Shown here: positions 13,539 to 62,250 of the stretch, one piece after another | How the letters are laid out: each line of letters opens with the position of its first letter | Numbering within the stretch: position 1 is the first letter of the stretch | Origin: Clostridium sp. CAG:594 | GTDB lineage: Bacteria > Bacillota_I > Bacilli_A > RF39 > UBA660 | Length of the DNA stretch: 64,000 bases | Assembly (NCBI GenBank): GCA_000434835.1 | Contig: FR881490.1 | Location: 56,374 to 120,373, forward strand | Reading direction: 5' to 3' | The notes under the pieces: model-generated | What the model saw: the letters and a program-made list of their open reading frames with translations, nothing else | Database searches by the model: none | Told to the model about the DNA's origin: nothing | Made by a program: the position numbers and the translations under genes

Positions 13539-15467
13539 ATGGCAGAAAATAACGAACATTATGATGCTTCCGATATTCAGGTCTTAGAGGGATTAGAAGC
13601 CGTAAGAAAAAGACCAGGTATGTACATTGGTACTACTGATGTAAAAGGATTACATCATTTAGTTTGGGAAATTGTAGATAATGCAATAGATGAATCATTA
13701 GCTGGTTATTGTAATAATATTGAAATTATTATAAATAAAGATAACTCTGTTACCGTAAAAGATGATGGCCGTGGTATACCAGTTGATATTCACCCAAAAA
13801 CAAAGATATCTACAGTAGAAACTGTATATACAGTACTTCATGCTGGAGGTAAATTTGGTGGAGGCGGATACAAGGTATCAGGAGGTCTTCATGGTGTTGG
13901 TGCATCAGTTGTTAATGCACTATCTAAATGGGTAGAAGTAACTGTTTATAAAAATAGTAAGATTTATAAAATAAGATTTGAAAATGGTGGGCATACTACT
14001 CATCCATTAGAAGTTATCGGAGAATGTGAAGAAAATAGAACTGGTACTTGGGTAACATTTAAACCAGATCCAGAAATATTTGATACGGATATTTATGATT
14101 ATGAAACCTTAAAGGTAAGAGTAAGAGAACTTGCTTTCTTAAATAAAGGTTTACGTATCACTTTAAGAGATGATCGTGATTTAGAAGATACAACTGGAGA
14201 AACTTTTATATATGAAGGTGGTATTTCAGAATATGTTAAGTTTATAAATCAAGGAAAAACTCCTATTCATGAGGATATAATTCATTTAGAGGGTATGGAA
14301 GAAAACGTATTTTTTGAAGTAGCACTTCAATATAATACTGGATATAATGATAACATTTATTCTTTTGTTAACAACATTAATACCCATGATGGTGGAACTC
14401 ATGAGGAAGGTGTTAAACGTGCATTAACAAGAGTTATAAATAATTATGCAAGAAAAAACAACATATTAAAAGAAAAAGATGAGTCTTTAACTGGTGATGA
14501 TGTTAAAGAAGGTTTGACAATGATTATATCTTGTAAACATCCAAACCCACAGTTTGAAGGACAAACAAAAGGAAGACTTGGTAACTCAGAAGTAAGAAAA
14601 TTAGCCGATAAGGTATTTTCAGAAGGTTTCGAAAAATTCTTACTTGAAAACCCAGATGAAGCAAAAATTATTGTTAATAAAGCAATGCTTGCATCACGTG
14701 CAAGACACGCTGCTAAAAAGGCAAGAGAAATAACTCGTAAAAGTGATTTAGCAACAACTAATTTCTTTGGAAAGTTATCTGATTGCAAGAGTAAAGATCC
14801 AAAAGTATCAGAAATTTTCATAGTCGAGGGGGATTCAGCTGGTGGATCTGCTAAAAAAGGTAGGGATTCAATGACTCAAGCTATACTTCCTTTAAGAGGC
14901 AAGATATTAAACGTAGAAAAAGCAAGACTTGATAGAGCCCTTGGAAATGAAGAAATAAGAACCATTATTACTGCATTTGGTACTGGTATTGGAGATGAAT
15001 TTAATTTAGATAAATTAAGATATGACAAAATCATAATAATGACCGATGCCGATGTTGATGGATCTCATATAAGAGTATTATTACTTACGTTATTTTATAG
15101 ATTCTTTAGACCAATTGTAGAAGCAGGGCATGTTTATGCAGCACAACCACCATTATTTAGAATAATGCATGGTAAAACTCGTAAATACGTACTTGATGAA
15201 CCTGAAAAAGAAGCTTATTTAGCATCTTTACCTGAAAATGTTCGTGCAAGAGCTGAAATCGCACGTATGAAAGGTTTAGGAGAGATGGATGCTGAAGAAC
15301 TAAACGAAACAACAATGGATATTGAAAAAAGAGTATTAAGAAAGATCACTGTAGAAGATTGTGTAGCAGCAGATGCTATGTTTGGTAAATTAATGGGTGA
15401 AGAAGTAGAACCTAGAAGAAAATTTATCGAAGATAATGCACAATATGTTAAAAATTTGGATATTTAA
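13539..15467 (+). CDS. gyrB: DNA gyrase subunit B
   Basis: 642 aa with GHKL ATPase and TOPRIM motifs (EGDSAGG). Confidence 0.97.
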
Positions 15468-18065: not shown

Positions 18066-18126
18066 AGGTATATAAAATAAATATCAAAATTAACTTGCTA
18101 AAATTCAAATAATATAATAAAATAAT

Positions 18127-18206
18127 ATTGCACAACAGGAATGTTAGAACCAGGTCAGGCTCGAGAGATAGCAGCCTTAATAACCTCTTTCTGTGTGTGC
18201 TTTTAT
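18127..18206 (+). ncRNA. ffs: Signal recognition particle RNA, small 4.5S-like form (candidate)
   Basis: ACCAGGTCAGG…AGCAGCC matches the SRP domain IV consensus ACCAGGUCAGG-UCCGGAAGG-AAGCAGCC. The apical GNRA tetraloop GAGA is closed by a compensatory TC/GA stem (E. coli has CC/GG). The 5' GCACA pairs with the 3' TGTGC, followed by a U-tract. A -10-like TATAAT sits upstream. Confidence 0.5.
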
Positions 18207-18219
18207 TTTATATAAAATA

Positions 18220-55558: not shown

Positions 55559-57544
55559 ATGCAGAATAATCAAAATATGAAAAAGGGAATGTTTCCTTAT
55601 GTAATGTTATTAGTAATTGGTCTTGCCATAATGTTTTTATATAACATGACTAATAATATGAATAAGGAATTAACATATAATGAGTTTAATAAGGCATTAA
55701 ATAAAAATAATATTAAAGAAGTTGTTATAACGCCTTCTACGCAAGCTTACACATACCAATTAACAGGTACGCTAAGAGATTCTAAAAAAGGAGAAACATT
55801 TAGTGTTAAAACACCACTTTCTGATACTGTTATTAAACAAATAGTAAGTGCAAGTGAGAAAAAGGACTTTAAGATAGTATCTAAATCAGATCCTACATCA
55901 AGTACTTGGTTTATGTTTTTAACTAACATACTTCCTTACATAGTTTTAATTGGTATTGCATTTTGGTTCTTTACAAAGCAACTAGGTGGTCAAAAAGGAT
56001 CAATGGACTTTGGAAGAAGTAGGGCTAAATTAAATCCTGATAAGGGAAAAGTAACATTTAAGGATGTTGCAGGATTACCAGAAGAAAAAGAAGAGTTACA
56101 AGAGTTAATTGATTTTCTAAAAAATCCAAAGAAATTTACTAAATTAGGAGCTAGAATACCTAAAGGTGTTTTACTTGTAGGTCCTCCAGGAACTGGTAAA
56201 ACATTACTTGCTAAGGCAGTTGCAGGAGAAGCAAACGCACCATTTTACTTTATATCTGGTTCTGATTTCGTTGAATTATACGTTGGTATTGGAGCATCAA
56301 GAGTAAGAGATATGTTTAAGCAAGCAAAGCAAAATGCACCTTGTCTAATATTTATTGATGAAATCGATGCAGTAGGTCGTCAACGTGGTACAGGTATTGG
56401 TGGAGGCCATGATGAAAGAGAGCAAACTCTTAACCAATTATTAACTGAAATGGATGGCTTTGGAGCAAACGAAGGAATTATAATAATTGCTGCAACTAAC
56501 AGACCTGACGTACTTGATCCAGCACTTTTAAGACCAGGAAGATTTGATAGGCAAGTAACTGTTGCTCTTCCAGAACAAAAAGCAAGGGAAGAAATATTAA
56601 AAGTACACGCAAGAAATAAAATATTATCTAAAAACGTACACTTAGATAATATTGCAAAAAGAACAGTTGGTTTTTCTGGAGCTGATTTAGAGAACTTACT
56701 TAATGAGGCTGCATTACTTGCGGTTAGAAGAGAAAAAAATGCTATTACAATGTCTGAAATAGATGAGGCAATAGATAGAGTTATCATGGGACCTGCTAAG
56801 GTAACTAAAAAATATACTAAAGAAGAAAAGAAGTTAGTAGCATATCATGAAGCTGGACACGCTGTATTAGGAATAAAATTAGATAATGCAAATGATGTTC
56901 AAAAGGTAACTATTATTCCACGTGGTCAGGCTGGTGGATATAACTTAATGCTTCCAAAAGAAGAAAAATATACAGCAACTAAAACAGAATTATTAGAACA
57001 AATAATGGGATTACTTGGTGGTCGTGTTGCGGAAGAAGTTGTGTTTGGTGAAATAACAACGGGAGCGCACAATGACTTTTCAAAGGCAACAAAGATTGCT
57101 AGAAGCATGGTAACAGAATATGGAATGTCTAGTCTAGGACCAGTTCAATTAGAAACTCCAGAAGGAAGTTCTTTCTTAGGAAGAGATTATAATAAAAATA
57201 GAAACTTCTCTGACCAAGTAGCATTAGAAATAGATAATGAAGTTAGAAAAATAATTAATGATTGTTATAGTAAAGCTAAAAAGATAATAGAAAAAAATAG
57301 AGATTTACTTGATTTAATAGCTTCTAACTTAATTGAGCACGAAACATTAACAAAAGAACAAATCGATTACATAGCAGAAAATGGTAAGATGCCAGTTGAG
57401 GAAATGCTAGATGATGTAAACCTTTCAAAACTAAAAGAAATGGCTAAGGCTCAAGGGATTAAAGGTTATTCTTCAATGAATAAAGATGAACTTAAAAAGG
57501 CTTTATCAAATGATTCATCAGAAGAAGAGAAAAAAGACGACTAA
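55559..57544 (+). CDS. ftsH: ATP-dependent zinc metalloprotease FtsH, with a C-terminal Rho_N/SAP-like tail
   Basis: Walker [12 protein letters not shown], and HEAGH zinc motif. The tail is [28 protein letters not shown]. Confidence 0.95.
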
Positions 57545-57562
57545 TTGCTAGTCGTTTTTTCT
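57536..57562 (+). terminator. ftsH terminator, left copy of a ~26-nt direct repeat (ACGACTAATTGCTAGTCGTTTTTT)
   Basis: ACGACTA-attgc-TAGTCGT hairpin that includes the ftsH stop codon, followed by T6. Confidence 0.6.
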
Positions 57563-57628
57563 TTATATAAAAATAAATGTATGATATAATTAATGTGATT
57601 ATAGATACGATAGTTTGGAGGTTTTAAT

Positions 57629-58207
57629 ATGACGTATGAAGAAATTACTAATAAAATACTTGGAATGTTTAGTAAGGATATGGCACCCGAAGAAAGAAAA
57701 TTACTTATTATGTTATATGATACTTGTACTTATAATAAAGATTGGGATGATGAGCCAACATTTAGTTTGTTAAGAGTTAAAACGTCATTTGATAATATCA
57801 CCAAAAAAATGTCTAGCATATTTAATATAAAATCAAGTAGATTAAAATATGTTGATTCCGATCTTTATGATAAGGATATGTCTAATTTACATGTTGATAT
57901 GGAAAGTTTAAATAAAATAAGAGAGAATACTCACGAATTTAAACATAATTCTGAAAATAAAAGAGATACATTTGATAAGTTTAAAATTGAATTAATGGAA
58001 GATTATATAATGTTAGAAGATTGTATTCAAAATTACAGTGATGATAATAAAATTTTAAAAGCAAAAATTATGAAATTATTAACAGATATGGAAATACTAC
58101 TAGGTTTACCAGTAACATTTACATCAAAAATTCCAATGTGTGTTAGTGAGATTATTGAAAAAGAAAAAAAACAAGAACAAAAAGGTGGTGTAACTCATGT
58201 TAAATGA
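57629..58207 (+). CDS. Hypothetical protein (island gene 1, 192 aa)
   Basis: ORF with a GGAGG RBS. No recognisable domain. Its 3' end overlaps gene 2. Confidence 0.5.
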   Translation: MTYEEITNKILGMFSKDMAPEERKLLIMLYDTCTYNKDWDDEPTFSLLRVKTSFDNITKKMSSIFNIKSSRLKYVDSDLYDKDMSNLHVDMESLNKIRENTHEFKHNSENKRDTFDKFKIELMEDYIMLEDCIQNYSDDNKILKAKIMKLLTDMEILLGLPVTFTSKIPMCVSEIIEKEKKQEQKGGVTHVK

Positions 58208-60017
58208 CATATTATATGAAATTAAAAATAAATATGAAAAAGATATTGATACCTTATCTGACAATGTAGTTGCATTACAAAATAGTTTGAACGATGAAAT
58301 AAATATTAACAGCGCAATAAGAAACTTTATAGAAGAATATAGGTCATCACATAAAATTAATTTTGATATTCTTGAGCCTTATAGAAAACTTTTGATTGAA
58401 CGTGGAATAATAGAGGATAAAGATTATAAAAATCTAATAAAGATAAAGGAAGAGTTAGAAGTTGATTTTCCTGAAAAAACTATAAAAATAAAAGAAGAAT
58501 TAAGCAAACTAGTAAATAGTTGTAATTCATATTCGATGAATCATACAAAAAAATATCAGTTGATAGTTAAGGAAAAGTCGAATTTTGAATATATAGCAAG
58601 TGGGAAAAAGGAAGAATTAAGTAATATTAATATGTTACTTGAAGGAAAGATTTTTGATGAAAATATATATGACACCATAAATGATATACCATATATTAAA
58701 CCTGAAGAAAAAGAAGAAATTTATTTTAATATAACTCTTAATGGAATTAAAACTTTTAATTCATATATTTCAATGGAAGCTAAAAAACAGGAAGAATATA
58801 AAAAGCAAAAAATGCTTAATGAGGCAAGGAAAGTTAATCGTAAAAGAAAACAAAATATAGAGTTAGATAAAAAAGTAAATCATAGTGAAGAAAATCTAGT
58901 TGGTTTATCAGATGAAGAATTAGATCTTATAAAACGAGCTGAGAAAATAGTAAATGAAAATAACACTGAAAATGATGCTTTTTTAAAGACTTTGGTTGGA
59001 TTAGATTATATTGAAATGTTAGATTATATTGAAGGAACAAAAAATGTAGAAGAAAAAATAGCTATTGTATTAAAACAACAACTAATTCCTCAATTAAAGG
59101 CTGGAAAATTAGTAAATGCAAAAAAAGTTTTAGAAACTTATATATCAAAATATAATTTTATTAAAGAATCAAATATTCCTGAAAATAAGTTGAAACGAGT
59201 TGGAAAGGAATATGTTTTACAAACTATGGATATGGCCAAAAATATGCTTCAAAATTTAGATAAAGAAGGTGGTTATTATTCTTATATAGAAAAGCCATTG
59301 TTGGATATGGAGTATGCTATTGAATCTGATGAAGTACTTAATGATCCTTATTTTGATGAACTATATGATACATTGAAGAACGCCATAAACTATGTTTCCG
59401 AACTAATGAATAGTAATAATATAGAACAAGAGCAGAATTCTGAGAAACAAGTCTCTGATCTTGAATTTTATGGTAAAGATACCAATAATTTAATTATATT
59501 TGCAGATGGGATAGATTTATCAAAACAAATTGATGAAAATGAAACATTAAATTTTTCTCATAAAAAGAAAGTTTTGAAAGCTTTAGAAAAAATGTCCAAA
59601 GATCCTAATATATTAATTACTTCAAACCATAAAGTTAAAGATAATATAAATAAAGATAAATATAAGTTTTTAAGAAGCTATAAATCTTCTGATTATAGAA
59701 TTGTTTATAGAGTGTTTGCTGCATCAGGGCTAAGCAAATTATATGGTAAGAAGATGAATGTGGTATTTCCTATTCGTGTATTTTATGGAGCAACAGATGA
59801 AAAAGATGCTGATTTTAAAAAGGCTAAGCAAATGTATGGTACGGTTCATAAAGAAATAGAAAAATATATAGAAATTTTGAATTCTGATGACTATGATGAT
59901 ATAAAAGATATTGTATCAGAACAAAAAAAGAAAATTGATAAATTTATAAAGGATAGTGATCCTAAAAATCCAGGGGATTCAGGTATTGGTTCATTAGGAG
60001 GTGGTAGTGATGAATAA
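58197..60017 (+). CDS. Hypothetical 606-aa protein (island gene 2): long K/E-rich N-terminal region plus a C-terminal RelE/ParE-like domain
   Basis: The C-terminus LNFSHKKKVLKALEKMSKDPN…KYKFLRSYKSSDYRIVYRV…MNVVFPIRVFYGATDEKD has a RelE/ParE-superfamily pattern (…kkl.kk…L…dP…R…dYRiiYri…vv.ilrigh). AAAGGTGGTG RBS. Overlaps genes 1 and 3. Confidence 0.5.
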   Translation: MLNDILYEIKNKYEKDIDTLSDNVVALQNSLNDEININSAIRNFIEEYRSSHKINFDILEPYRKLLIERGIIEDKDYKNLIKIKEELEVDFPEKTIKIKEELSKLVNSCNSYSMNHTKKYQLIVKEKSNFEYIASGKKEELSNINMLLEGKIFDENIYDTINDIPYIKPEEKEEIYFNITLNGIKTFNSYISMEAKKQEEYKKQKMLNEARKVNRKRKQNIELDKKVNHSEENLVGLSDEELDLIKRAEKIVNENNTENDAFLKTLVGLDYIEMLDYIEGTKNVEEKIAIVLKQQLIPQLKAGKLVNAKKVLETYISKYNFIKESNIPENKLKRVGKEYVLQTMDMAKNMLQNLDKEGGYYSYIEKPLLDMEYAIESDEVLNDPYFDELYDTLKNAINYVSELMNSNNIEQEQNSEKQVSDLEFYGKDTNNLIIFADGIDLSKQIDENETLNFSHKKKVLKALEKMSKDPNILITSNHKVKDNINKDKYKFLRSYKSSDYRIVYRVFAASGLSKLYGKKMNVVFPIRVFYGATDEKDADFKKAKQMYGTVHKEIEKYIEILNSDDYDDIKDIVSEQKKKIDKFIKDSDPKNPGDSGIGSLGGGSDE

Positions 60018-61794
60018 TTTAAAAGATTTAATTGTATTATTAGAAAAGGAAATTCGTTATACTTCAAATGATAAAATAAAAAAGTTGGAACTTGCATCAG
60101 AAAAACTGAATTCTCCAATGAACTACACTAAAGAATCAATAGAAAATTTAAATGAAATATTAATAGATGAGGTTCGTTTAACAGAAGATGAGTTAGATAG
60201 AATTCGTAATTTTGCTAAGTTGAGCGATACTGCTAAAAAATATTATCTTCATGATGCATACTCAGAGGAAGATAAAGTACTTTATTCGATACCAGAAAGA
60301 ATTAATAAAAGTAAAGAATTTTACCAAAGTAAAAAAATAGGGGAAATTAATGTAAAAAAATTAAAAAGAAAACTAACCGGTAAATTAAATGAACTAATTA
60401 ATGAAGATGAAATAAATATTATTAATAACTGCCTTAAGAAAAATAATATTTCAGGAAAAAACATCTGGAAAGAAATACATAAAATCAATTTTAATATATT
60501 TAAAAATTACAATATAAATACGCAAGAGTTAGGAACTATTGTTTTAGAAGAAACTAATGTAGATGAAAAAGAGCTTGTTAAGCTATTAGCTTCTTATGGC
60601 ATTGATTTTTCTGAGTTTACAAAAAATGATAAAAGTACATTATTGTTGTATGCTGATTTAGGAAAGATAGATGAATTGTTGAAATTCTTGCAAGATGAAA
60701 ACGCTCTTACTACTAAGTTGACAAAATACACTGGTATTTTAACTTTGATGTTTATTAGAACTTCACTTCAAGATTTAATAAATTTAAAAGAGTCGACAAT
60801 TGGTATTGATTTTAAAGATCTTGTTAGTATTTTTCCGACAGCACTATATCCAAATGTACGCACTTATTCAAGAAAAAAAATAATAGGTTCAGAATTCATT
60901 CAGACACAAGAAAGTGGATTATTAACCACAATTCAAAAAAATGCTCAACTTATGAATGAAAATGGTATAGATATTCAGTATGTCTGGGATGAATGTCCTT
61001 CTTTCCTTAAACAGAGTAATAGTGCAAATAAAGATAATATTGCTGGATTAAAATCTTACGGGATTTCGTTACTTGATGAAAATGGTAAACCTAAAAAAAT
61101 GCTTAGTGTACTAGGTAATAGAAACCCAAGTATGATAGATATTTATGATACTGCATTAGAAGCGGATGCTAAAGAATATGCCCTTAATAATTTATCTAGT
61201 TTGGCTCCATCGACAAGATATAAATTTAATTTGATAAAAGCTGCGAAAGCACTAGGCATGCCTGATTCTGATATTTTTAGAGGTTATAGAGCACCTAATA
61301 GAGAGTTATCATTAAATCTAAAAAAATTATCCTTAAATCCTCGCCTTTCAACTGATATAGACAAACAAAATGAACTTTATGGTAAGGTTAATATAGAGAT
61401 ACCAAATTTTAGAGTATATGATAATTTATTTGATATAGTAAATCCTATAAATGTATCAGAAGAAGTATTAGACGATAAAAATATTAAAGCTATTGAAAGA
61501 TTTAAAGAATCAGAAGAGCTTTATAATTTTAATGGAGTTAAAATATCGAGAAGAAAGGTTTTAAGGCTCTATAGTACTTTAATGCAAAATGATAAGTCAG
61601 ATGAAATGGATGCTTTATTATATTGTATAACTTATGGCAGTATGTTAGATAAAAATGAATTAAGAAATATTTATAGTTTGGTAAAAAAGGTATGTAATTT
61701 TAATAATGTTTCTAGTTTTGATGTTAATACAACTAGTTATGTTGATATAAAAAATGAGGCAAAAGCTATGGTAAATGGAGGTAAAAATGGTTAA
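60010..61794 (+). CDS. Hypothetical protein (island gene 3, ~594 aa)
   Basis: ATG 9 nt after a GGAGG RBS, embedded in the end of gene 2. No recognisable domain and no Walker motif. Confidence 0.5.
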   Translation: MNNLKDLIVLLEKEIRYTSNDKIKKLELASEKLNSPMNYTKESIENLNEILIDEVRLTEDELDRIRNFAKLSDTAKKYYLHDAYSEEDKVLYSIPERINKSKEFYQSKKIGEINVKKLKRKLTGKLNELINEDEINIINNCLKKNNISGKNIWKEIHKINFNIFKNYNINTQELGTIVLEETNVDEKELVKLLASYGIDFSEFTKNDKSTLLLYADLGKIDELLKFLQDENALTTKLTKYTGILTLMFIRTSLQDLINLKESTIGIDFKDLVSIFPTALYPNVRTYSRKKIIGSEFIQTQESGLLTTIQKNAQLMNENGIDIQYVWDECPSFLKQSNSANKDNIAGLKSYGISLLDENGKPKKMLSVLGNRNPSMIDIYDTALEADAKEYALNNLSSLAPSTRYKFNLIKAAKALGMPDSDIFRGYRAPNRELSLNLKKLSLNPRLSTDIDKQNELYGKVNIEIPNFRVYDNLFDIVNPINVSEEVLDDKNIKAIERFKESEELYNFNGVKISRRKVLRLYSTLMQNDKSDEMDALLYCITYGSMLDKNELRNIYSLVKKVCNFNNVSSFDVNTTSYVDIKNEAKAMVNGGKNG

Positions 61795-62083
61795 TGACGA
61801 TTTAAAAAAAATAAACATTAGTAAGGAATGTTTAGAAGTAGTAAAAAATACCTTTGATTATGATACTATAGTTTCACTGGCATATAATTATGAAAATATA
61901 AATAATAATATAAAAATGTTAAAATCTTATGGTCTAAAAGACATTGATAGGTTTTTTATTGAGAAAAATCATATTTTTTTGATAAAAAGTGAATTATTAG
62001 CTAAAAAATTTTCTAAATTTAATATACCTGTTTTTATGGAAATTATAAATAATGATTATAGTGCAATAGATAAAATTTTTTAA
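61775..62083 (+). CDS. Hypothetical protein (island gene 4, ~100 aa)
   Basis: ORF overlapping the end of gene 3. Alternative start at 61787 after a GGAGG RBS. A hairpin plus T-tract follows at ~62120–62180. Confidence 0.4.
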   Translation: MEVKMVNDDLKKINISKECLEVVKNTFDYDTIVSLAYNYENINNNIKMLKSYGLKDIDRFFIEKNHIFLIKSELLAKKFSKFNIPVFMEIINNDYSAIDKIF

Positions 62084-62215: not shown

Positions 62216-62250
62216 ATTGACATTTAAGTATTTATATGTTAGTATAAATG
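62216..62250 (+). promoter_or_regulatory. Candidate promoter for island gene 5
   Basis: TTGACA, ~17 nt, then TATAAAT. This lies inside the track's N-terminal extension of the ORF, so the real start is the downstream ATG. Confidence 0.35.

Follow-up and report, generated by a model that had tools for sequence, protein, structure and literature searches.

The stretch of DNA analysed here, hereafter the window, comprises 64,000 nucleotides (nt) of contig FR881490.1 (assembly GCA_000434835.1, Clostridium sp. CAG:594), and all positions are given in its numbering. It is a portion of the origin-proximal chromosome of a spore-forming Firmicute with a G+C content of 27%, and carries gidA, dnaX, mfd, yabP, yabQ, divIC, rpoBC, tilS and ftsH. 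A cluster of four genes, here called A, B, C and D, comes after rpoB, rpoC, tilS and ftsH. The second of them, gene B, encodes a protein of which residues ~425–535 adopt, according to a structural model, the RelE/ParE (BECR) toxin fold; this is an assignment of fold, from which activity is only predicted. The cluster and the domain are composed as follows.

57629..58207, + strand: gene A, 192 amino acids (aa), without known family (open reading frame, library searches)
58197..60017, + strand: gene B, 606 aa, RelE/ParE-fold protein (open reading frame)
59469..59801, + strand: RelE/ParE-superfamily (BECR) fold domain, residues 425–535 of B (AlphaFold2, Foldseek, Pfam, hhalign)
60010..61794, + strand: gene C, 594 aa, without known family, with an alternative GTG start at 60001 (open reading frame, library searches)
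61787..62083, + strand: gene D, 98 aa, with an alternative ATG start at 61775 (open reading frame, orthologs)

The RelE/ParE-like domain of protein B

The reading frame of gene B (58197–60017, + strand) is genuine and stays open for 606 codons. An earlier note on this DNA had predicted a RelE/ParE-like fold at the C-terminus of its product, quoting a peptide that corresponds to residues 451–544. The fold itself is borne out by an AlphaFold2 (AF2) model, by structure comparison with Foldseek, by recurrent Pfam matches and by profile-profile alignment with hhalign; a check for the opposite outcome, the lack of any significant RelE/ParE profile or structural match, left the prediction standing. 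Its placement needs some correction: the domain does lie in the C-terminal part of B, but not at the extreme C-terminus, as a helix and a Gly-rich tail extend beyond residue ~535.

The AF2 model of the domain, computed with a 13-sequence alignment, has a predicted local distance difference test score (pLDDT) of 85.6 and a predicted template modelling score (pTM) of 0.83, all five models reaching at least 80; it superseded a model based on a 3-sequence alignment, which was unusable (pLDDT 44.7). Its topology is β1-α1-α2-β2-β3-(short helix)-β4-α3, α3 being a long helix, and its elements are, in order, a strand (model positions 6–9), two helices (17–23 and 29–43), three strands (68–72, 77–84 and 96–105) and a final helix (112–135). 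This is the β1-α1-α2-β2-β3-β4(-α3) arrangement of the superfamily, and the model can be superposed on solved RelE/ParE toxins. When compared with the PDB using Foldseek, the matches at ranks 1–9 are all RelE, ParE or HigB toxins (probability 0.91–1.00) and include RelE proteins (2khe, 3g5o_C, 9g12), PfiT/ParE and a pneumococcal HigB-type toxin. The template modelling scores (TM-scores) normalised to the target are 0.76 for 3g5o_C and 0.65 for 2khe, compared with 0.41–0.52 for ParE and PfiT, and unrelated matches start at rank 10 with a TM-score of 0.22.

Profile searches point to the same family. The window protein matches Pfam PF05016 (ParE_toxin) with E-values of 0.034–0.066 and 14.2–15.2 bits, residues 453–506 aligning with profile positions 26–71, and 10 of the 13 family members scanned singly match this profile, the best with an E-value of 3.2e-4. 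PF05016 is the only Pfam family that recurs for the domain, the other weak matches being confined to one or two of the 13 members each. A PHROG profile annotated as 'RelE-like toxin' matches residues 454–506 of B, and hhalign aligns the domain with an E. coli RelE-type profile (P = 4.4e-4, probability 31–34%), pairing ...DYRIVYRV...VVFPIRVF with ...GYRLVYQV...VVVFVISVG, that is, with the β3 and β4 strands of RelE; when relaxed to full length the alignment covers RelE residues 2–95. Sequence searches of the PDB, performed with the single B protein and with alignment profiles A2, A3 and A4, returned no RelE/ParE match, so that the relationship was revealed by structure comparison where these searches were blank. 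The fold assignment is upheld because the AF2/Foldseek results, the recurrence of PF05016, the PHROG match and hhalign agree, despite Pfam scores below threshold.

The domain is the best-conserved part of B, with a mean pairwise identity of 49% compared with 27–34% for the N-terminal domains, and it contains a helical insertion of 10–14 residues between β3 and β4. Residues H478, R501 and Y504 are invariant across the B family. The catalytic set of E. coli RelE consists of K52, K54, R61, R81 and Y87; in the hhalign alignment the invariant R501 corresponds to R61, F540 (Tyr in most relatives) to Y87 and K536 to R83. A KKK patch on helix α2, which in RelE has a role in ribosome contact, is conserved in the B domain as well.

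The remaining parts of the protein were delimited mainly from the family alignment.

58197..58781, + strand: residues 1–195, N-terminal domain, assumed to be helical, family mean pairwise identity 27% (alignment)
58782..58916, + strand: residues 196–240, K/E-rich linker of variable length, K+E 38% (alignment, composition)
58917..59396, + strand: residues 241–400, conserved middle domain (alignment)
Residues 401–424 of B: short variable linker (alignment)
59802..59966, + strand: residues 536–590, long C-terminal helix, starting with K536 and F540 (AF2, hhalign)
Residues 591–606 of B: Gly-rich tail (alignment)

The K/E-rich, probably coiled-coil region of ~450 aa that the earlier note had placed before the domain is therefore only partly recognisable: the linker at 196–240 is strongly enriched in these residues, but the N-terminal 424 aa as a whole are only moderately so (K+E 25.5%, compared with 17–22% in neighbouring proteins) and do not form a uniform K/E coiled coil. 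These 424 residues gave no significant or recurrent match in Pfam, NCBIfam, PADLOC, PHROGs or PDB profiles. B is a multidomain cytoplasmic protein of a rare family, represented by three clusters among 5.8 billion proteins and by 11 further 50%-identity representatives among 1.84 billion proteins; a scan of genome contigs for homologs found only two metagenome-assembled genomes, both from uncultured Bacilli. Complete relatives have ~600–660 aa and carry the domain at the same place, and two relatives end inside it. In the 1.84 billion representative proteins the domain profile retrieved only full-length relatives and no stand-alone RelE/ParE toxins.

Operon architecture and partner genes

Genes A–D form a translationally coupled operon, as anticipated in the earlier note and now corroborated by gene overlaps, Shine-Dalgarno (SD) boxes and conservation in relatives. 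The reading frames overlap by 11 nt (A/B), 8 nt (B/C) and 8 nt (C/D), and at every junction a GGAGG or GGTGG box lies 7–10 nt 5' of the next start. Each of these boxes is read in frame as the Gly-Gly tail of the preceding protein, so that the tails of A, B and C (58180–58196, 59997–60009 and 61774–61786) are at the same time the SD box of the next gene, as illustrated by the B/C junction.

59997..60004, + strand: GGAGGTGG, SD box for gene C within the B frame, encoding the conserved Gly-Gly tail of B

The same arrangement occurs at the same junctions in contigs L001, L004, L005, L007, L018 and L020. The B tail reads 'GG..[DN]E-stop', its terminal [DN]-E being the ATG-AAT start of C read in the B frame. 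In seven loci the start codons at A/B, B/C and C/D overlap or adjoin the stop codon before them and have an embedded SD box, the only exceptions being short gaps of 18 nt at C/D in L001 and 10 nt at A/B in L005. The 'GG..E' tail of B was also considered as a secretion signal or as a tag of the Pup or ubiquitin type; this was rejected, as the tail is merely what the SD box and the C start codon encode when read in the B frame.

The partner proteins A, C and D, together with the product of gene E downstream of the operon and their orthologs, show nothing consistent in Pfam, NCBIfam, PADLOC, PHROGs or PDB-profile searches. Gene A has a conserved C-terminal half with the motif EDYIML.DCI.NY...LLTEMEILL, and its product may act as a partner of B or neutralise it. 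The C-terminal third of C is strongly conserved (YNFNG..ISR.KVLR.Y), and D is the slowest-evolving member of the operon. Proteins C and D share an 'IN.NI..LKSYG' motif (hhalign P = 0.0011, 25 columns), beyond which hhalign found no paralogy between any of the four operon proteins. In L005 the D ortholog (13625–13918) weakly matches Pfam mTERF (E-value 0.0013, 18 bits, the cut-off being 23). Together, the shared motif and the mTERF match hint at helical nucleic-acid-binding repeats in C and D, a lead drawn from sequence.

The operon is flanked by the following features.

57534..57560, + strand: ftsH stop codon and bidirectional terminator hairpin, copy 1 of a 27-nt direct repeat (sequence scan)
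57562..57590, + strand: sigma-70-type promoter-like site 5' of gene A (TTTATA, 17 nt, TATAAT, with TG; consensus match only)
62277..63956, + strand: gene E, 559 aa, with an alternative TTG start at 62217 (open reading frame)
63946..63972, + strand: gene E stop codon and terminator hairpin, copy 2 of the 27-nt direct repeat (sequence scan)

A comparable TTGACT/TATTAT site, read from the sequence, precedes gene A in L004 and L007. Gene E is probably outside the core module because a gap of 190 nt separates it from D and it is seen only in the species of the window. The two copies of the 27-nt repeat are identical at 25 of 27 positions and bracket the whole A–E block, while none would be expected by chance in the window; in other genera only the downstream copy, located after D, was seen. 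That the repeat marks the insertion of A–E as a mobile element is unsupported, since A–D occupy the same site in other genera without a flanking repeat and the haplotype breakpoints described below do not coincide with the position of copy 2.

Evolution of the locus

The gene order ftsH-A-B-C-D is kept in all relatives with a contig long enough to show it (L001–L007 and L018–L020), which represent at least nine lineages. The next gene after D encodes a class-A penicillin-binding protein (PBP) on the opposite strand, except in L005, where dusB-lysS is found instead. The operon evolves far faster than the neighbouring genes: where FtsH is 85–94% identical to that of the window, identity is 30–41% for A, 30–36% for B, 32–44% for C and 53–67% for D.

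Within the species of the window the operon exists in two versions that differ along a block of three genes.

57600..61830, no strand: haplotype block A-B-C (comparison with contigs L001 and L002)

The block has 65–74% nt identity to L001 and L002, compared with 97–99% for the flanking ftsH, D and E, and it is sharply bounded at about 57.6 kb and 61.83 kb. Synonymous divergence (dS), computed as was the nonsynonymous to synonymous ratio (dN/dS) by the method of Nei and Gojobori, has values of 0.14 (ftsH), 0.08 (D) and 0.03 (E) in the flanks and of 0.44 (A), 1.32 (B) and 1.17 (C) in the block; one comparison, of the 3' end of ftsH with L001, had slipped out of frame and is excluded. The haplotypes differ with a dN/dS of 0.30 in B and 0.25 in C, and values of 0.25–0.30 indicate that both versions are functional. 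The haplotype of the window is present in ten other contigs of the species with at least 98% identity, and a profile search for gene C homologs found only the two known alleles. The A-B-C versions are thus ancient, still-constrained haplotypes that are exchanged as a unit, and do not reflect recent relaxed or positive selection in place.

Some further variation was noticed around the block. Gene E is polymorphic as well, its allele in L008 and L017 (10490–12166) having 85.6% nt and 78% aa identity amid neighbouring genes that are ~99–100% identical. Gene C is split into frames of 312 and 280 aa in L009 (8224–10008), and B ends at 580 aa in L012 (6410–8152). Each of the two may be a loss-of-function variant or an assembly error; if they are loss-of-function variants, the genes are dispensable.

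Interpretation and relation to known systems

The reading towards which we lean, with rather less than even confidence, is that the operon encodes a chromosomally fixed, toxin-antitoxin (TA)-derived multi-protein effector complex with a RelE-type output directed at the ribosome or mRNA. The operon would descend from a RelE-type TA module enlarged into such a complex. The RelE-like domain would provide the output by binding the ribosomal A site or mRNA, most likely cleaving or blocking the latter, and its activity would be suppressed by A and C, by the N-terminal domains of B, or by both. Gene A, upstream and overlapping, holds the classic position of an antitoxin. A, the N-terminus of B and C may co-evolve as one specificity or sensor unit, a pattern of conflict systems that could reflect, for example, sensing of phages or foreign elements or the matching of toxin and neutraliser, and D may be a generic conserved subunit. 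This TA-derived effector is suggested by the conserved domain, the variability of A, of the remainder of B and of C, the coupled expression, the position of A and the conflict-like evolution. Like the earlier note, we infer a fusion with an effector or sensor role and not a plain TA pair, which fits the conserved domain, the variable remainder and the lack of a recognisable antitoxin. A more specific version, which we regard as unlikely, is an undescribed immune or kin-discrimination system in which a four-protein complex, vertically fixed next to ftsH, would use a hypervariable sensor or specificity unit (A, the N-terminus of B and C) to gate a conserved RelE-type translation-arrest effector; balancing selection would maintain the deeply diverged haplotypes within the species, and C and D might be bacterial nucleic-acid-binding repeat proteins of the mTERF kind.

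Several observations weigh against a TA-derived effector. The PF05016 score of the window protein lies under the Pfam gathering cut-off of 23 bits. In the domain the equivalent of RelE K52 is variable, that of K54 is Ser or Arg and R81 has no basic equivalent, while the allele of the window has Phe at the position of Y87; RNase activity is uncertain because the K52, K54 and R81 equivalents are not conserved and because of this Phe, and it is best described as possible on the evidence of sequence. PADLOC-DB v2 contains no defence family that matches A–E at E ≤ 1, PHROG searches of A, C, D and E gave no consistent match, and library searches revealed no recognisable antitoxin or DNA-binding domain in A–D. 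In addition, defence and TA modules are normally patchy and mobile, and would not usually show the strictly vertical synteny that this locus has in at least nine lineages.

Such synteny would be just as compatible with a housekeeping or structural complex specific to the lineage, whose RelE-fold domain has lost catalysis and been exapted to bind RNA, the ribosome or protein. A–D would then serve a normal cell process, for instance RNA handling or translation, sporulation or biogenesis of the envelope, and their fast change would reflect low constraint on helical scaffolds. This explanation, which we consider somewhat unlikely, stays alive because of the strict vertical synteny, the ftsH-A-B-C-D-pbp position being fixed in all nine lineages examined, and because the RelE catalytic set is incomplete; the sigma-70-like promoter 5' of A, the absence of PADLOC matches for A–E and the C/D helical-repeat-like motif, with the weak match of one D ortholog to the nucleic-acid-binding repeats of mTERF, are also in its favour. 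It does not lead one to expect two haplotypes with dS above 1 inside flanks that are 97–99% identical, nor B identities of 30–36% where FtsH reaches 85–94%. Moreover, the RelE-like domain is the part under the strongest constraint and its invariant His, Arg and Tyr suggest a retained active or binding site, while the possible disrupted variants (the split C of L009 and the shortened B of L012) suggest dispensability.

The other explanations concern the nature of the domain or its delivery. It may poison DNA gyrase, as a ParE-type toxin, instead of targeting the ribosome or mRNA: ParE_toxin is the top Pfam family, the Foldseek matches include PfiT and several structures of ParE, and several RelE catalytic residues are absent, as they are in ParE toxins (PMC11980606). 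However, PF05016 does not tell RelE from ParE (PMC11980606), the TM-scores are closest to RelE (0.76 and 0.65 for 3g5o_C and 2khe, compared with 0.41–0.52 for ParE and PfiT), and the equivalents of R61 and Y87 and the KKK patch on helix α2 are conserved, which makes a gyrase poison quite improbable. A chance resemblance, that is, a convergent small α/β fold with fortuitous profile matches and no true kinship with RelE/ParE, would account for the Pfam scores under the gathering cut-off, the blank PDB-sequence profile search, the lack of any stand-alone RelE/ParE protein among 1.84 billion representative proteins and Foldseek E-values of only ~1e-2; it is nevertheless very improbable and largely refuted by the agreement of four independent lines (PHROG, Pfam, Foldseek and hhalign) on family and register, by the best Pfam E-value of 3.2e-4 and by the late appearance of unrelated Foldseek matches (from rank 10, TM-score 0.22). 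Lastly, B might be a secreted polymorphic toxin of the LXG/type VII secretion system (T7SS) kind, A-B-C diversity representing toxin-immunity diversification between strains, an idea to which the long, probably helical region that precedes the BECR-fold domain, the small protein encoded upstream and the strong within-species polymorphism lend some appeal. Toxins of this kind combine an N-terminal LXG domain, a variable toxin domain at the extreme C-terminus and an immunity gene directly downstream, and the B locus departs from this plan: no LXG or other trafficking domain was found at E ≤ 1 in 13 members, the pattern of conservation is reversed in that it is the toxin-like domain that is conserved best, the domain is internal, and the gene directly downstream encodes 594 aa instead of a small immunity protein. 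No secretion-related Pfam family was found for any called gene in flanks of 10–20 kb, several of these genes having no match at all; the scan covered the smaller part of the 64-kb window. A secreted toxin is on these grounds very improbable.

A TA-derived effector of the type favoured here has parallels among known systems, none of which it resembles in full. With RelE-type mRNA interferases (E. coli RelE; Mycobacterium tuberculosis RelE2 Rv2866, 3g5o; Thermus thermophilus RelE, 2khe; PF05016) the B domain shares the fold and the order of strands and helices, the Y-R-[IL]-V-Y strand, an Arg at R61, an aromatic residue at the position of Y87 and the KKK patch on α2, and the overlap by the upstream gene A resembles the placement of antitoxin genes before RelE. 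It differs from them in being embedded at 425–535 of 606 aa, in the β3-β4 insertion, in a C-terminal helix of 55 residues and in the lack of conservation of the K52, K54 and R81 equivalents; unlike RelE modules, A–D include no recognisable RelB-, ParD- or Phd-type antitoxin and form a four-gene operon that is vertically inherited and not mobile. A type II TA module consists of a small stand-alone toxin of ~90 aa and an adjacent small antitoxin with a DNA-binding domain (RHH, HTH, Phd/YefM or AbrB), whereas B has 606 aa and A and C–E match no antitoxin family in Pfam, NCBIfam, PADLOC or PHROGs; the resemblance is limited to gene order, with an upstream gene overlapping by 11 nt.

In population-genetic pattern only, the locus is reminiscent of polymorphic specificity loci with sharp recombination boundaries, such as the pherotypes of Bacillus subtilis comQXP and staphylococcal agrBDC, as in both cases a diverged block of adjacent genes is followed by a near-identical next gene and flanks; A–D differ from these loci in having no signalling peptide, kinase or regulator.

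Proteins that combine a BECR-fold toxin with other domains include the fused RelE-YiaG, YefM-YoeB and BrnTA, PtuZ (PIN'-YoeB) of ptuXYZ and the transmembrane ToxM, as described in a recent survey (Gerdes 2025; PMC11980606), which by its own statement left many multidomain BECR proteins outside its analysis. What B shares with these toxins is a conserved effector domain of RelE/ParE fold that forms part of a bigger protein or of a putative defence operon of several genes. It differs from those described there in that the partner proteins A, C and D are all unannotated, and the partner domains named there (YiaG/HTH-XRE, YefM, RHH, PIN-like, DUF262 nuclease, PtuA-like ATPase and transmembrane) were not detected in A–E or in 13 B relatives. 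Multidomain RelE/ParE-fold proteins are an already recognised category, and the defence toxins among them (PMC11980606) provide a precedent for the reading favoured here, although none of the examples listed above shares the architecture of B or its partner proteins. CapRel, a fused toxin-antitoxin sensor encoded by a single gene on mobile elements, joins a RelA/SpoT-like effector to a phage-sensing antitoxin domain (PMC9712102). B shows the same conservation pattern, in that its effector-like domain is conserved and the part fused to it evolves fast, but this domain is RelE-like, and the operon that encodes it has four genes and a constant position in the chromosome.

Almost all RelE/ParE domains are seen as toxins of ~90 residues in mobile modules of two genes. 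Here one forms the conserved core of a protein of 606 residues, in a four-gene operon whose other parts match no known family and which is passed on vertically at a housekeeping locus of spore-forming gut Bacilli that are abundant and uncultured. The fixed locus, the extreme rate and the two ancient haplotypes together make this operon a tractable case for studying how TA effectors may be domesticated into sensor/effector machines, and permit a test of balancing selection on such machines in the gut. In addition, ~1,500 residues of co-expressed protein without a family gain a concrete and testable functional context.

Other features of the window and its relatives are of minor interest. In some strains of the window's species, represented by L008 and L017 (641–2380), an additional gene for a 579-aa protein of the sigma-70 family lies between rpoC and tilS; the window does not have it. 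Ordinary RNA elements include a small signal recognition particle (SRP) RNA (18121–18213) and a ribosomal protein L10 leader (44420–44552). Two large surface proteins are encoded amid housekeeping and sporulation genes near the origin, one of 1536 aa with SdrD_B and Ig-like domains (32204–36814) and one of 774 aa with SpaA pilin-type domains (36774–39098).

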